A DNA stretch of 60,207 nt from the NCBI GenBank assembly GCA_028283955.1, contig JANQSP010000055.1, positions 1-60,207 on the forward strand. The letters run 5' to 3'. Below the pieces are notes generated by a model, which had not been told where the DNA came from, made no database searches, and saw only the letters and a list, made by a program, of their open reading frames with translations. Below are positions 2,999-9,773 of this stretch, in pieces (within the stretch, counting starts at the first letter, position 1; every line of letters starts with the position of its first letter). The position numbers and the translations under genes were made by a program. This DNA is from Bdellovibrionales bacterium (GTDB lineage Bacteria; Bdellovibrionota; Bdellovibrionia; Bdellovibrionales; UBA1609).

Positions 2999-3846
2999 AT
3001 AAAGTAACTAAATCAAAAATGAAAAAAATTTTTAAAAAGCATCCAATATTATCTACAATTTGTTGTTTTCTATCCCTTCTTTGCTTTGTCCATTTGCTCC
3101 CTCTGGAGCATGAGTTTATAACTGGTTTTAAAGTTAATTGGGATAATTATATTTCTTATTTATACAGCGTTATGTTGACAACCGATATTGCTTTGATTGT
3201 TTATTTATTCGTAGATACAGAAACAGATGACAAATTGAAAAAAATAAAGGATACCGAGAAGAATATACAAAAAAATACTGAACAAATAGGTGAAATAACT
3301 AAAATGGTGCAAAATGATGTTAATAAAATGGAAGAAAATGTTCAAAAAATATCAGAAATTCAGAATAAAATTGCTCTTGAAACAGAGAAAAATCGCCTTA
3401 TAAATTTTGCTCAGCATTCTTCCTTGCCTGAGGAAAATAAGCGTTTTTTTAGAAGTAATATAAAATCTATTTTTCATGAATCGAAATATAATTTCAGGCA
3501 AATAGACCAAGATAATAATACTTTAGATTATTTTACAATTATTTTCATAAGAAAAAATAACGGATTACCAAAAGTATTTTATCCATTTGGCAGAGTGCAT
3601 GAGTTTCCTTATTTTTGTGTACATGTGATTGACAAAAAACCTTCTTTGGAAAATGGAGACAGTGGAGTGCAGCTGGATTTACATTATTATTTAAGTTATG
3701 ATTTTTCTGATAAAACTTGGCGTATTGCTGAACAATACCCTATAGAAGGTTCCCATATGAATAAAAGTTTCAAAATTATTTTTTCTGGTACCAATTACAT
3801 TGGAAAAGGTGGTCCATCCGCAGAAGAATTTTGTAAAAACTGTTAA
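2992..3846 (+). CDS. Hypothetical membrane protein (two N-terminal TM segments, coiled coil, soluble C-terminal domain)
   Basis: 284-aa ORF overlapping the upstream stop. Hydrophobic ILSTICCFLSLLCFV and YLYSVMLTTDIALIVYLFV segments are followed by a heptad K/E/Q-rich stretch. Confidence 0.6.
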   Translation: MVNKVTKSKMKKIFKKHPILSTICCFLSLLCFVHLLPLEHEFITGFKVNWDNYISYLYSVMLTTDIALIVYLFVDTETDDKLKKIKDTEKNIQKNTEQIGEITKMVQNDVNKMEENVQKISEIQNKIALETEKNRLINFAQHSSLPEENKRFFRSNIKSIFHESKYNFRQIDQDNNTLDYFTIIFIRKNNGLPKVFYPFGRVHEFPYFCVHVIDKKPSLENGDSGVQLDLHYYLSYDFSDKTWRIAEQYPIEGSHMNKSFKIIFSGTNYIGKGGPSAEEFCKNC

Positions 3847-4004
3847 AGTTTACTAGTTTCACTTAAGAGAAAAGTCTTTAACTTAATCCCTGAGCACTTA
3901 AGAAAACCAGCCTCACAGAAGAAAAAGCGAGAATGTTTCCAGCGGGAAGGGTGGACAGTGTGTAACAAGAAAGAGTTAAAAGTACACTCTAAAAAACAAA
4001 TAAA

Positions 4005-4251
4005 TGGCGGAGAGAGAGGGATTCGCCTACTACGTTCGTTCGCATCACGCTCACTCACTGCGCAGGCCCCCCTCAGTCGCTCAGAAAATCATCCAGATTT
4101 TCTGCCCTGTATTGTCTGCTCCCATAAGGTCGCAGGCAACACAGGTCTCTCCTTTTACTTCTTTGGAGAGAGAGGGAAAACGAAGCCTCGAGACGGTTTC
4201 CCGCCTACACGCTTTCCAAGCGTGCGCCTTCAGCCACTCGGCCACCTCTCC
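4005..4251 (-). tRNA. tRNA-Ser(GGA) interrupted in the T-loop by a 157-nt insertion
   Basis: Minus strand 4251-4181 reads GGAGAGGTGGCCGAGTGGCTGAAGGCG-CACGC-TTGGAAA-GCGTG, then the long variable arm TAGGCGGGAAACCGTCTC, then GAGGCTTCG. The 3' end AATCCCTCTCTCTCCGCCA lies at 4023-4005. Functionality is uncertain. Confidence 0.85.
4024..4180 (-). other. Structured intervening sequence within tRNA-Ser (intron-like RNA or miniature integrated element)
   Basis: Helices at 4171-4165/4152-4146, 4145-4132/4119-4106, 4104-4096/4090-4082, 4178-4172/4074-4068 and 4067-4062/4030-4025. A 13-nt direct repeat GGAGAGAGAGGGA occurs at 4009-4021 and 4165-4177. Confidence 0.75.
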
Positions 4252-4266
4252 TTATTTTAAACTTTA

Positions 4267-4321
4267 TCCCGCCTACACGCTTTCCAATGCCTGCGGATTT
4301 CAGCCGCTCGGCCACCTCTCC
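4267..4321 (-). pseudogene. Degenerate tandem duplicate of the 5' half of tRNA-Ser(GGA)
   Basis: GGAGAGGTGGCCGAGCGGCTGAAATCCGCAGGCATTGGAAAGCGTGTAGGCGGGA. 4267-4287 is identical to 4199-4219. The D-arm/anticodon-stem region is mutated and there is no T arm. Confidence 0.8.
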
Positions 4322-4341
4322 TATATTTTCCTAGACACATT

Positions 4342-5865
4342 TTACTTTTTATAAAATTCCTGCATTTGTGACTTGAACATCTGTCGTGAATGCTTCCAGG
4401 TGTAAAACATATGTCCTCCATGAAACACCTTAAAGGAAATTTGCTGTTTTAATTCTTCCGGAAGATTCATAGACTGCACCACCCGCTCAGAAGAAAAATA
4501 AGGGGTCGCCAGATCAAATATCCCATGACAGATAAATACCTTCATCTTCGGATTCATGGACATAGCATAACGAAGATCATCCGTGGCCCCTATTTGCAAA
4601 TCGAAAAAATGATCCCGCTTATCCTGCTTCCAACTTTTATTCACCTCTATATTTATAAGACGATATTGCCTGTCACAATCCAATTCCAGATGCTCCCTCA
4701 ATAAAGTATTAATCCCATGACTGAAAGCATGTTCAGTACCGGATAAACCGGGGTCAGGTCCTTCAAATTCATTCCGATGGGGAAAAGGATCATAAGTGGT
4801 AATGGAAGTGTCATACATGCCACACCACTTTCTTTCATTCTGTAAGAGCAGACGGCAAAACTGCCAAATCTGAAGTCGGCCATTTCCCTTTCTCATCCTC
4901 TCAAAAGGCACGCCTATAAATTTCACCACCTTTTGTAAAATGGCTTTTCTTTTCTCCTCATCCATTCTTTCACCCTGGACGAGCAGACAGTTCATCTCAT
5001 TAAGTGCAAAGTCCTCCGCCTCCTTCAAGAAAGACCGTAAATCCGATCCCAAATTCATACCCTGTTCCCGACCGGCAAAATAAGGAGACTTTTGATGATG
5101 AACCGCTGAAGCCACCATGGTGGGAAAAGACTCAATCCAACCAAGAACATCGTAATCACTACCGGTAAAAGTATTGAGTTCCAGACAGGGGGAAATCAAT
5201 ATCACACCGGATAAACCCACTCCATAATCCTCCTGAAGTTTTCGCGAGAGCTTGGCTACACGAAAACCTCCGTAACTTTCTCCGGCAATAAACACAGAAG
5301 AAGACCAACGGCGGTACTTTGATAAAAATCTCCCTATAAATTCCCCTATTGTTTCCAGGTCTCGATTCATTTTGTAAAACTCCTGGCCGAACGCTTTCTC
5401 TTTTTTATCCTTCTCACCGGGAGGGGTTAAATCCACCTCTTCCAAAGAACGACTAAACCCTGTACCCACCGGGTCCACAAACACCAAATCAGTAAAATCA
5501 AGCCAGCTCTCTGTATTGTCTTTTAAATGGGCCGGAGGAGGTAAACACTCTCCTGTGTCACCAAAAGTGATTGTCTTTGGCCCCATTGTTCCTACATGTA
5601 AATAAGCGGAAGAAGCCCCAGGACCACCATTGAAAACAAAAGTGACAGGCCGGGAAGACCCCGTCTCCTTACAACAATAGTAGGTATAAAAAATGTCCGC
5701 TATAGGCTTTTCTTTTTTGCGGATAGGAAGCCACTGCGCTTCGACGGAACAATCGACACGCTTCCCTTCCAACTTCCAGGACCATATTTTTTTTTGTCCT
5801 TTAGGTGGCTGATAAACCTTTTCTTTGTTTTCAGACGACTCTTTCTTTTTTTCCTCTTTACTCAC
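4342..5865 (-). CDS. Peptidase S10 family serine carboxypeptidase
   Basis: Motifs FNGGPGASS, DLVFVDPVGTGFS, GESYGG (catalytic Ser), DLATP and GGHMFY (His). Confidence 0.92.
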   Translation of the reverse strand: MSKEEKKKESSENKEKVYQPPKGQKKIWSWKLEGKRVDCSVEAQWLPIRKKEKPIADIFYTYYCCKETGSSRPVTFVFNGGPGASSAYLHVGTMGPKTITFGDTGECLPPPAHLKDNTESWLDFTDLVFVDPVGTGFSRSLEEVDLTPPGEKDKKEKAFGQEFYKMNRDLETIGEFIGRFLSKYRRWSSSVFIAGESYGGFRVAKLSRKLQEDYGVGLSGVILISPCLELNTFTGSDYDVLGWIESFPTMVASAVHHQKSPYFAGREQGMNLGSDLRSFLKEAEDFALNEMNCLLVQGERMDEEKRKAILQKVVKFIGVPFERMRKGNGRLQIWQFCRLLLQNERKWCGMYDTSITTYDPFPHRNEFEGPDPGLSGTEHAFSHGINTLLREHLELDCDRQYRLINIEVNKSWKQDKRDHFFDLQIGATDDLRYAMSMNPKMKVFICHGIFDLATPYFSSERVVQSMNLPEELKQQISFKVFHGGHMFYTWKHSRQMFKSQMQEFYKK

Positions 5866-7792: not shown

Positions 7793-8962
7793 TTACATCC
7801 CCAACTGTATCTTATAAAGCCAACCGACATTAGAGATAAAGTACAGCTCCGCAGTTGCTTTTGACACGACAGGCGGGGCGGACATCCCGCTCCCAAAAGG
7901 AAAGGAATGCAGCTCTTCCCCGGTACTCTTGGAGATAAAACGCAAGGCACCCGTATACTCTCCATAAATTAAAATACCCTTATACAATACAGGAGAAGTA
8001 GCTATAGATTCAGGAACATCGTGACTCCAAATCTGTTTTCCTGACTTTTGATCCAAAGCCAATACCTGTCCATTATGAGTGGAATAAAAAAGCCGGGAAC
8101 CATCAAGAAGTAAATCCCCATACGATCCGACGTCGGTTTTCCATATCACTTTTCCGGTTTTTTTATTTAAACAATAAACCCCCGATTCCAAACTGGAGGA
8201 ATATAAACACGCTTTCCCTATAACCGGTGAGGAAAAAGCAGTGGTAAATCGATTACCCGAATTAGATAATGTATGCTTCCATTTCAAACGTCCTTTAAAA
8301 TTCAAAGCAATAAGAGATCCATCACTAACTTTAAAATATATAAGATCATCTCCAACAAGAGGAGCCGCCACACCTTCAACTGTAAATTCCGCCGGTTTTA
8401 TCTGGGTAGAATAAGTCCAGATATTTTCACCTGTTTTCACATTTAAACAATAAATTTTATCAGCGGAAGCAAAATATAAATTCAACCCCCTTAATACCGG
8501 CGCACTGATACCAGTCAGGCCGGTATAATACTTCCACAATACTTTGCCCGTTTTCAAATAAAGAGCATATATAAAACCATCAGATCCTCCAAAAAATACA
8601 AATTCACCTGAAACCAGGATATCCCCCGCAACACCTCCTTTAATCGAAAAAAACCACTTCCTCTTACCCTGTTCCGAAGTGTAAACACTGACCCCGTTCA
8701 CCTTATTTCCCTGAACCAGCAAACCTTTCCCGGTAAGCACAGGTTTTATAGACTGTAAAATAGAAGGACGAGTAAAATCTTTTGAAAAAGTTTCACGTAT
8801 CCAAACTTTTCTGGCTAAAACAGAAGGTGTTTTTCCCCTTATATAATGAGCCACTCCTCCTTTTGCTTTTTTATAATCCTGAAAGAATCGATTATCCGTC
8901 GGTTTCAGGTGCTGACAGGAAGTAAAAAACAAGAAAGCAAACAACAGATATATTATATACAT
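7793..8962 (-). CDS. bamB: BamB-like PQQ-repeat beta-propeller lipoprotein
   Basis: Lipobox FFTSC after the start at 8962 (MYIIY). Repeated YAL..KTGKVLW / YCL..KTG.VIW propeller motifs. Directly downstream of a yfgM-like gene. Confidence 0.75.
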   Translation of the reverse strand: MYIIYLLFAFLFFTSCQHLKPTDNRFFQDYKKAKGGVAHYIRGKTPSVLARKVWIRETFSKDFTRPSILQSIKPVLTGKGLLVQGNKVNGVSVYTSEQGKRKWFFSIKGGVAGDILVSGEFVFFGGSDGFIYALYLKTGKVLWKYYTGLTGISAPVLRGLNLYFASADKIYCLNVKTGENIWTYSTQIKPAEFTVEGVAAPLVGDDLIYFKVSDGSLIALNFKGRLKWKHTLSNSGNRFTTAFSSPVIGKACLYSSSLESGVYCLNKKTGKVIWKTDVGSYGDLLLDGSRLFYSTHNGQVLALDQKSGKQIWSHDVPESIATSPVLYKGILIYGEYTGALRFISKSTGEELHSFPFGSGMSAPPVVSKATAELYFISNVGWLYKIQLGM

Positions 8963-8966
8963 AAAC

Positions 8967-9773
8967 TTACTCTCCGGTTTTCTCTTCTTCCGCTTTTTCA
9001 TTGTCCACACGCTTATTCATCCTGTCTTGAATACGAAGCAGGTTGAGATATTTCTCAGCTACTCCACTAGCCTGGGAATCCGAAAAATCATTTTTTATCC
9101 TTTTATAAATTTCTTCTGCTTTTTCTTTTTTATTCTGCTGCTCATAACAAAGAGCTATTTTAACCAAAGTGTCCGGCCATAACCACTTTGCTTTTTCATT
9201 CTCCATAATAAACTGAAAACTTTCAATTGCGTCATTATAATTTCCCTGGTCCATTAAATAAGCCCCTGATTGAAAGGAAACTAAAAACCCTAGCATGTTT
9301 TTCCTCTTATTAAGCCTAACCAACTTAACCAGTTCCATGGCCTGCTCTTTTTTTCCATATTGATGTAAAAATGACACCATTTCAATTGCTGCTGTCAAAC
9401 CCGCTGATTTTGAAATCCATTTCTCAATCACACTGATATACTGATGAACCGCCTGTTCCATCTCTGAGTTGTATTCCGCTTTTTTGGTTCTTCCAAAAAA
9501 GTTTTGACTGCTATTGAAGCCCAATATGTCTCCCCCCGCTTTCTCTTCAGCCAACACCAGCTCTTTCCTCGCCTGATAGAGTAACTCTTCCGCTTTTTCA
9601 TTTTGCTGTTTTCCCAGGTAGGCATACAGAAGTGACAATCCAAAAATCAAAATACCACCAACTAATAAAGAAGTGGCAGGCCAAAAATATCTACTCACAA
9701 AACTATTGGATTTTTTAATAAATAAAGATAGCGGGTCCCGCTCCTCTTTCTCTGGAAAATTACTTTTGGCCAT
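8967..9773 (-). CDS. YfgM-like membrane-anchored TPR protein
   Basis: One N-terminal TM helix and TPR motifs (GNYNDAIESFQ, KIALCYEQQNKKEKAEEIY). yfgM-bamB synteny. Confidence 0.75.
   Translation of the reverse strand: MAKSNFPEKEERDPLSLFIKKSNSFVSRYFWPATSLLVGGILIFGLSLLYAYLGKQQNEKAEELLYQARKELVLAEEKAGGDILGFNSSQNFFGRTKKAEYNSEMEQAVHQYISVIEKWISKSAGLTAAIEMVSFLHQYGKKEQAMELVKLVRLNKRKNMLGFLVSFQSGAYLMDQGNYNDAIESFQFIMENEKAKWLWPDTLVKIALCYEQQNKKEKAEEIYKRIKNDFSDSQASGVAEKYLNLLRIQDRMNKRVDNEKAEEEKTGE

Follow-up and report, generated by a model that had tools for sequence, protein, structure and literature searches.

The window analysed here is a stretch of 60,207 nt (contig JANQSP010000055.1, assembly GCA_028283955.1) from a Bdellovibrionales bacterium; the genome that holds it is called G000 below, and the labels G0xx, Lxxx and Cxx denote related genomes, fetched loci and contigs, respectively. 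On the minus strand, between positions 4251 and 4005, lies a tRNA-Ser(GGA) gene in two pieces. The 5′ piece starts at 4251 and reads through GAGGC (4189-4185) to TTCG (4184-4181), and the 3′ piece, AATCCCTCTCTCTCCGCCA, occupies 4023-4005, so that 157 nt (4180-4024) stand between them. The initial annotation described these letters correctly, including the CG on both sides of the junction and the C53/C61 mismatch that would remain after joining, and took the locus for a tRNA split in its T-loop by a structured intervening sequence. Our analysis shows that 4005-4251 is a rearranged tRNA-Ser(GGA) locus containing one 5′-truncated copy of a non-coding, strongly structured repeat of about 135 nt, and that this repeat occurs essentially only 3′ of tRNA genes in this family of ‘Bdellovibrionales’ metagenome-assembled genomes (MAGs).

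The 157 nt are not a plain insert. They open with a second copy of the 3′ strands of the T-stem and acceptor stem (4180-4164, TTTT CCCTC TCTCTCC A), which is why ARAGORN calls a contiguous tRNA-Ser(GGA) at 4164-4251. The Rfam tRNA model RF00005 accepts this contiguous form in a 551-nt search (40.4 bits, gathering score 29) and misses it in window-wide and genome-wide runs with default filters; it is the lowest-scoring tRNA of G000, the remaining ones lying between 54 and 75 bits. In intact tRNA-Ser(GGA) genes of relatives the T arm and 3′ end read GAGGG TTCGAAT CCCTC TCTCTCC G(CCA). Compared with these, the proximal copy of the window shows G53>C, AAT>TTTT, a longer T-loop without A58, and G73>A. 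Its T arm, GAGGC TTCGTTTT CCCTC, has neither the G53-C61 pair nor the 7-nt T-loop with T54 and A58 expected of a functional tRNA. Since its proximal 3′ end has decayed, the contiguous tRNA of the window is weak and, to judge from its sequence, probably defective.

The segment 4154-4016 is not unique and belongs to a dispersed repeat family, as blastn, nhmmer and a covariance model agree. With blastn against 40 related genomes it was found many times in genomes of the same genus, the totals per genome, tRNA matches included, being 17 in G010, 13 in G013, 12 in G003, 11 in G012 and 10 in G005; a second G000 copy lies on contig C50, directly after tRNA-Leu(UAG). A profile search of the fetched loci with nhmmer gave 102 matches, none of them bearing an open reading frame, and 52 unique full-length copies. 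Of the 61 genomes and 35 genera of the window’s MAG family, 18 and 11, respectively, have matches to the covariance model R1, which was built from 46 copies; genomes of 3-4.5 Mb are among them. The hosts are sponge- and coral-associated ‘Bdellovibrionales’ MAGs. A pattern scan over 185,579 species, each represented by one genome, returned 36 stretches, 35 of which come from MAGs titled Bdellovibrionales or Bdellovibrionaceae. The sole match outside such records, L058, is on a short contig (JAGHBR010000400.1, 4515 nt) of a MAG titled Caldisericaceae; misbinning or transfer could account for it.

With a repeat of about 135 nt in a full unit of about 165-270 nt, no gene inside, many copies and presence or absence among relatives, the family has some of the traits of miniature inverted-repeat transposable elements (MITEs). 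The Rfam searches yielded no match for its body, only tRNA and hairpin matches far below threshold. Full-text literature searches, made mostly at the level of abstracts, found no earlier description of such an element, and the family appears to be undescribed. A palindromic motif that follows Methanopyrus tRNA genes is unrelated to the element (PMC5217627).

The link to tRNA genes is close. A same-strand tRNA lies within the 140 nt upstream of 41 of the 52 unique copies; among the other 11, two have a tRNA just past this limit, eight are later units of arrays and one is unresolved. More than 20 anticodons are represented among the linked tRNAs. Loci from other genera follow the same rule in 16 of 20 cases, and of the remaining four, one is N-masked but shows the 3′ end of a tRNA, another stops where its contig does, and for two no tRNA is called. 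The full unit begins with tRNA positions 1-56, which run on into a copied tRNA 3′ end that starts at about position 57 and extends 0-10 nt past the gene. Then come a locus-specific spacer, often with a terminator hairpin, and, in inverted orientation, the T-loop and T-stem 3′ strand of the host, or in some loci its entire 3′ end. The constant body, led by GAAG, folding into three hairpins and terminating in GYAGGC, precedes a second direct copy of the host tRNA tail, which starts at about R57/A58 and again extends 0-10 nt past the tRNA; the native flank comes last.

Both arms track the T-loop variant of their host, be it GAATCC, AAGTCC, AAATCC, GAGTCC or GAGGCC. Of 55 first copies, 52 have the inverted 9-nt T-loop anchor, and in 35 of these the match continues without error through the T-stem strand; the direct repeat from A58 mostly measures 16-30 nt, with greater lengths in arrays. 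In some loci, mostly from other genera (L070, L086, L069 and L082), the inverted copy takes in the CCA end as well, so that a long palindrome encloses the terminator. We considered, and rejected as a rule, an inverted arm always spanning the segment of the direct repeat, its acceptor part being seen in 9 of 51 loci. By inspection, tRNAs with similar 3′ ends share proximal spacers, as tRNA-Ser(GCU) and tRNA-Ser(GGA) do in G005 (L004, L017), and the spacer of the Gln array of G013 (L002) resembles the flank after tRNA-Arg(UCU) on contig C6 of G000.

Which of the two tRNA ends is native can be judged from the flanks. At tRNA-Trp, where G010 can be set against the empty site of G000, the distal flank scores 15 against 9.3 for shuffled sequences (3/200), whereas the proximal spacer scores 10 against 9.6 (85/200). 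At tRNA-Arg(CCT), the flank after the distal copy in G012 is that of the empty site in G000, by inspection. The distal flank of the window, CCGCCATTTATTTGTTT…, likewise looks, by inspection, like the sequence that flanks the intact tRNA-Ser(GGA) of G010 and G013. Because the native flank follows the distal copy in these three comparisons, we read the native gene as broken in its T-loop, with the proximal copy restoring it. In these three loci the tRNA 3′ end is directly repeated and its native version lies distally, an arrangement shared with integrase-type insertions. In the window, we take the distal copy at 4005-4024 for the native end, and the weak hairpin within 3966-4004 for a possible terminator of the native gene. 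To this extent the displaced gene end of the initial annotation stands: the distal piece and its flank are the native end moved away from the T-loop, at the level of DNA.

The body carries a fold that has been under selection. The RNAalifold consensus has 46 pairs, 34 of them with compensatory changes, and 96.0% of cells are paired, against 83.4±0.4% after shuffling (0 of 500 shuffles reach the observed value) and 31-43% in slid controls. Covariation is found in all six helices; the loop of hairpin 2, nGGATGn, is conserved across genera of differing G+C, as are loop and linker motifs in genera whose copies range from 51 to 62% G+C. In the body helices, G·T and T·G pairs together number 67 and A·C and C·A pairs 8, and this excess of G·T over A·C points to the tRNA-sense strand, be it RNA or single-stranded DNA, as the one whose fold is selected.

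Comparisons between relatives point to mobile units. The gap between tRNA-Gly(TCC) and tRNA-Thr(GGT) is 7 nt in G010 and contains in G013 an insertion of about 270 nt with the full anatomy; the tRNA-Trp site is empty in G000 and filled in G010, G005, G002 and G015. Identical units can stand in tandem, such as three of 211 nt in L018. When the tips of the body tree were labelled by genome, 26 changes were counted against 30.5±1.4 for shuffled labels (2 of 500 as low), and when labelled by tRNA, 31 against 32.9±1.1 (55 of 500), counts from which five later array units were omitted and in a kind of test that kinship inflates. The copies at six tRNAs of G005 form one clade, and those of G010 and G013 pair by locus. 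Two remnants in G000 illustrate decay. On contig C16, in the roughly 80 nt that follow tRNA-Gln (7857-7930, plus strand), a deletion has left the 5′ arm GCAGGATTCGAAGCGAAGGAGTGACC, a few bases and …TAGTAGGC, with no body. On contig C50, in the roughly 100 nt that follow tRNA-His (9462-9536, plus strand), a 5′-truncated remnant keeps the last ~23 nt of the body and a 21-nt copy of the tRNA-His 3′ end. We also observed a second kind of array, made of a (pseudo-)tRNA with hairpins 1 and 2 only and repeated three to four times before an intact tRNA (Ser-GGA, Ser-GCU or Ile), in L013, L032 and L089 of G010, L014 of G003, L020 of G013 and L090 of G015.

The window locus is best understood beside its counterparts. 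In G003, G010 and G013 the tRNA-Ser(GGA) locus is an array of units, each a pseudo-tRNA (GAGGC arm, short A-rich spacer) with a truncated element, and an intact tRNA-Ser(GGA) with its terminator ends the array; in G005 and G008 the locus has the standard form of the element. The window contains one pseudo-unit, whose element continues to the native 3′ end, and no intact tRNA copy. The C in place of the usual G53 in 4181-4251 also occurs in the pseudo-tRNA units of G003, G010 and G013, and the fragment at 4266-4322 is a variant also seen in those of the Ser(GGA) arrays of G010 and G013. That the element copy is 5′-truncated follows from its nhmmer match, which begins at position 15 of the 154 of the profile. 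The features are collected in Table 1.

Table 1. Features of the tRNA-Ser(GGA) locus of the window (positions of the window; hairpins of the body given in the direction of the minus strand)
Feature	Position	Strand	Basis
Partial upstream tRNA-Ser copy, about positions 1-52, altered anticodon arm GAAATCCGCAGGC	4266-4322	-	Direct repeats D2, D3; sequence reading; comparison with L013/L020
tRNA-Ser(GGA) 5′ piece, starting with position 1 and ending after four T-loop bases (GAGGC TTCG)	4181-4251	-	ARAGORN; Rfam alignment; sequences of relatives
Decayed proximal tRNA 3′ end: TTTT (for AAT), CCCTC, TCTCTCC, A; without G73, without CCA	4164-4180	-	Reading; Rfam alignment; intact relatives
Short A-rich spacer; usual spacer/terminator and inverted T-loop copy (…GGATTCGAAGCG) absent	4153-4163	-	nhmmer; alignment
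Repeat body: GGAGAGACC, hairpins 1-3, linker GAGCGACTGAGGGG	4025-4152	-	nhmmer, 143 bits; covariance model R1, 148.5 bits; consensus structure
Body hairpin 1	4145-4106	-	Consensus structure and covariation
Body hairpin 2, loop TGGAT	4104-4082	-	Consensus structure and covariation
Body hairpin 3, GCCTGC…GTAGGC, tandem GA internal loops	4067-4025	-	Consensus structure and covariation
Distal intact tRNA 3′ end: G57 AAT CCCTC TCTCTCC G CCA	4005-4024	-	Sequence reading
T-rich flank, weak hairpin AGAGT…ACTCT	3966-4004	-	Sequence reading

The explanation that best joins these observations, to which we give roughly seven chances in ten, is that of a folded repeat that inserts in the T-loop of tRNA genes, the gene being rebuilt on the proximal side, with subsequent formation of arrays and decay; the window would be one such decayed locus, with no splicing involved. 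The element, probably a single strand in folded form, would enter the T-loop on the tRNA-sense strand, and its insertion would push the native 3′ end downstream. A 3′ end matched to the host, often with a terminator, would arrive on the proximal side, and it is because of this proximal end that the interrupted gene would stay functional. Local multiplication of units would then produce the tandem arrays, which would later decay by deletion. In the window, the proximal 3′ end would have decayed (G53>C, AAT>TTTT, G73>A) and the 5′ arm of the element been lost, leaving the good 3′ end 157 nt away. The data fit a sense-strand insertion anchored at R57/A58, with a long and variable duplication of the tRNA tail and an inverted arm closing the body as a T-arm-like stem.

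We searched for an enzyme that could move the element. The Y1 (HUH) transposase PF01797 was not found in G000, G010, G012, G015, G065, G081 or G085, which hold 2-26 copies each, and the reverse transcriptase PF00078 was not found in G000, G012 (nine copies, on one contig) or G065. TnpB (PF07282) gave no match over the cut-off in any of the five copy-rich genomes, and the IS110 DEDD transposase PF01548 was found in one of the five only, G010; contig C5 of that genome carries twelve identical IS110-family transposase genes (352-aa frame), and the four other element-rich genomes carry none. Tyrosine recombinases are encoded in all five copy-rich genomes, never inside the unit, and owing to this general presence they discriminate nothing. 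In both L089 and L090 the 3′ side of the tRNA is directly adjoined by an integrase gene (about 390-415 aa). The two integrase genes beside partial elements resemble, in their place at the tRNA 3′ side, those of ordinary islands. We discarded a MITE with the fixed terminal inverted repeats of an autonomous transposon, as the arms vary with the host tRNA.

Several observations weigh against insertion of a folded repeat as we propose it. No enzyme could be tied to the element, the Y1 transposase, reverse transcriptase, TnpB and IS110 families failing to co-occur with it, and we found no simple model for a proximal 3′ end and an inverted arm that match more than 20 host tRNAs. The proximal spacers are specific to their loci, that of tRNA-Trp in G010 being unique in five genomes, which fits neither a fixed mobile unit nor a native flank; the idea that this spacer is DNA captured from elsewhere was dropped, since in the five genomes it matches itself only. 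Only 9 of 51 loci show a recognisable inverted acceptor strand, and for this reason the long palindromes of some genera are not general. Ten of the 12 flank comparisons were uninformative because the intergenic DNA has diverged, so the topology with a distal native end is drawn from three loci, and at two of these the match was assessed by eye. Strong covariation and loops conserved across genera would equally fit a functional RNA. As to the window, no further tRNA-Ser(GGA) was found in G000 (31 tRNAs; genome 90.85% complete), which keeps tRNA-Ser(UGA) and tRNA-Ser(GCU), and we can therefore only infer that the tRNA of the window is both defective and dispensable.

Three mechanisms are candidates: an insertion that copies its target, an integrase acting on the folded strand, and a functional RNA retained by selection. 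More tentatively, the family might represent a new class of elements specific to tRNA genes: a folded nucleic acid of about 135 nt, with no known transposase, that would insert at any tRNA T-loop and copy the 3′ end of its target in both directions, whereby the gene would be rebuilt and target-matched arms gained. It would amount to a target-templated single-strand insertion or to a catalytic or guide RNA linked to tRNA, and the arms would mimic a T arm or minihelix for the enzymes of tRNA processing. We hold this broader proposal to be possible, though with the odds against it.

Two other accounts concern the window itself. In the intron account, a canonical TTCGAAT loop would arise when the 157 nt splice themselves out or are removed by an enzyme of the host, and we find this scarcely credible. 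Removal of 4180-4024 would restore the T-loop, and the MAG shows no other tRNA-Ser(GGA), yet C53 would still break the 53-61 pair and the insert holds its own copy of the 3′ strand. The homologous element follows complete tRNAs in 41+2 of 52 copies and at the C50 locus of G000, a position that led us to reject a group I intron deduced from the interruption of the gene. Moreover, the Rfam group I core has no match at the gathering score in the window and none at E≤10 in 3900-4450, group II models fared no better at either threshold, and no intron or small-ribozyme family matches three full element copies at E≤1. Both the minimal group-I-like T-loop intron and the processed intervening RNA of the initial annotation fail on these grounds, and it is its alternative of a tRNA-targeting miniature element that the comparative data show. 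The strong structure that it had noticed is real: the 247 nt fold with a minimum free energy (MFE) of -113.9 kcal/mol (z -5.83, equalled by 0 of 200 shuffles), and the 7-, 14- and 9-bp hairpins are all present. In this fold the 5′ acceptor strand does pair with the distal 3′ strand, a point in favour of the intron account; the partner of GAGGGG is the distal CCCUC and not the proximal TTCCCTC that had been proposed as closing pairing. A second, intact tRNA-Ser(GGA), for which it had asked, was not found in G000; in three relatives (L007, L009, L011) the gene carries no element. The contigs of run X1 hold a variant, …GAGGCTTCG|AATCCCTCTCTCTCC, with loose ends at 4181, which looks like the joined form; as it is DNA, on a contig with 4 mismatches to the window in 55 positions, it is attributed to another unit or strain rather than to a spliced product. 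No splicing is implied at this locus. Greater weight belongs to the second account, still doubtful in our view, by which the arrangement is a short-read assembly collapse of an array of pseudo-tRNA and element units before an intact tRNA-Ser(GGA), as in G003, G010 and G013. G000 is a MAG of 85 contigs, and relatives assembled in one to five contigs show arrays that end with an intact tRNA. The evidence from X1 consists of Logan contigs and unitigs with contig-level depth: the unitigs meet only at overlaps of about 30 nt across 4008-4215, a variant T arm is present, and contig depths differ between window positions 3700-4037 (4.7) and 4293-4700 (12.8). In five relatives, besides, the Ser(GGA) locus and the two flanks that border it in the window are not found side by side. 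Nevertheless, exact unitigs tile 3700-4215, and one of 101 nt (4115-4215) covers the decayed 3′ end together with the start of the element. Since they probably derive from the same read set as the assembly, the unitigs back the junctions and not the long-range path; the junctions of the window are real, but the path may be collapsed. From the unequal flank depths and the non-adjacency, the 60-kb contig may be chimeric at the repeat, a point that the missing synteny in five relatives neither proves nor excludes. Elsewhere in G000, a tRNA-Arg(CCU) on contig C26 (3374-3447), a duplicate of the one on C20, has its 3′ end exactly at the contig end, and a tRNA-Gly(UCC) on C13 (217-293) lies 216 nt from the contig start; repeats at tRNA genes may break this assembly.

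For the family as a whole, the main competitor of a mobile folded repeat is a functional, cis-linked and structured 3′-trailer RNA, not selfish, which would be transcribed together with its tRNA or directly after it. Its sense and antisense versions of the tRNA 3′ end would intervene in the maturation, termination or quality control of that tRNA, possibly with trimming by tRNA-processing enzymes. The covariation of six helices with loops conserved across genera of different G+C, the G·U pairs on the tRNA-sense strand, the match of both arms to the host tRNA and the full acceptor/T minihelix that the arms can form in 9 of 51 loci would all suit such an RNA. It accommodates less well a patchy presence (18 of 61 genomes) that differs among species at the same tRNA, the identical tandem arrays and truncated remnants, and the position of the element, usually 3′ of the terminator hairpin, and no RNA run is listed among the sequencing runs that contain the locus; on balance we think it unlikely. 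Less likely again is that the copies are att-site remnants or mini-derivatives of tRNA-integrating islands and owe their movement to a tyrosine integrase supplied in trans. Their topology is the one produced by T-loop integration, with the native 3′ end displaced, the proximal end rebuilt and direct repeats of the 3′ end; tandem copies occur, and integrases of about 400 aa are present in the five copy-rich genomes, two of them adjoining a tRNA with partial elements. These two are, however, placed at the tRNA 3′ side as in ordinary islands. Integrase elements are normally specific to one tRNA, whereas here one conserved body is found at more than 20 tRNA species with its ends matched each time, and a strand-specific covariation of several helices is unexpected for a double-stranded att site.

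For annotation, the lesson is that an apparent T-loop intron in a bacterium can be a repeat with a duplicated tRNA tail. At such loci tRNA finders will give weak or duplicated tRNAs, and short-read assemblies will tend to break or collapse. The family may explain the arrays of tRNA genes and the pseudo-tRNAs of these reduced symbiont genomes. An explanation of how its arms match more than 20 tRNAs without the usual enzymes would reveal either a new mechanism of insertion or a new RNA linked to tRNA.

Among known systems, bacterial group I introns occupy tRNA anticodon loops, and archaeal bulge-helix-bulge introns and split tRNAs are found at non-canonical positions. The window locus shares with them a structured insert separating the parts of a tRNA gene, but it lacks an Rfam intron match, the break is in the T-loop and in a bacterium, and homologues lie outside complete tRNAs. 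The guide RNAs from the right end of IS200/IS605 TnpB elements also consist of a structured scaffold of about 130-150 nt followed at the 3′ end by some 20 nt that originate from the flanking DNA; the present element differs in the want of a TnpB match over the cut-off in the five copy-rich genomes and of a Y1 transposase, and in its target duplication. MITEs, REP/REPIN sequences and the Rickettsia palindromic elements are similarly short, non-coding, multi-copy, rich in hairpins, patchy and subject to decay by deletion. Unlike them, the element stands strictly after tRNA genes, its arms are copies of the host tRNA instead of fixed inverted repeats, it has a 16-30 nt duplication anchored at A58, and its richest genomes show no RAYT/Y1 transposase. 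With the integron attC site and the attP hairpin of the CTX phage it has in common a strand-specific fold with compensatory changes, arrays, and a hairpin imitating a double-stranded target; its own target is a tRNA T-loop. Finally, phages and islands that target tRNA genes employ tyrosine integrases crossing over in the T-loop region. They resemble the element in their insertion on the T-loop side, displaced native 3′ end, proximal rebuilding, flanking direct repeats and possible tandem copies. It departs from them by its geneless unit of about 165-270 nt, by the use of one body for more than 20 tRNA species, its ends matched to each host, and by its inverted copy of the T-loop and T-stem and its covarying single-strand fold. 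The family thus joins the tRNA targeting and 3′-end replacement of integrase islands with the size and single-strand fold of miniature repeats and small RNAs.

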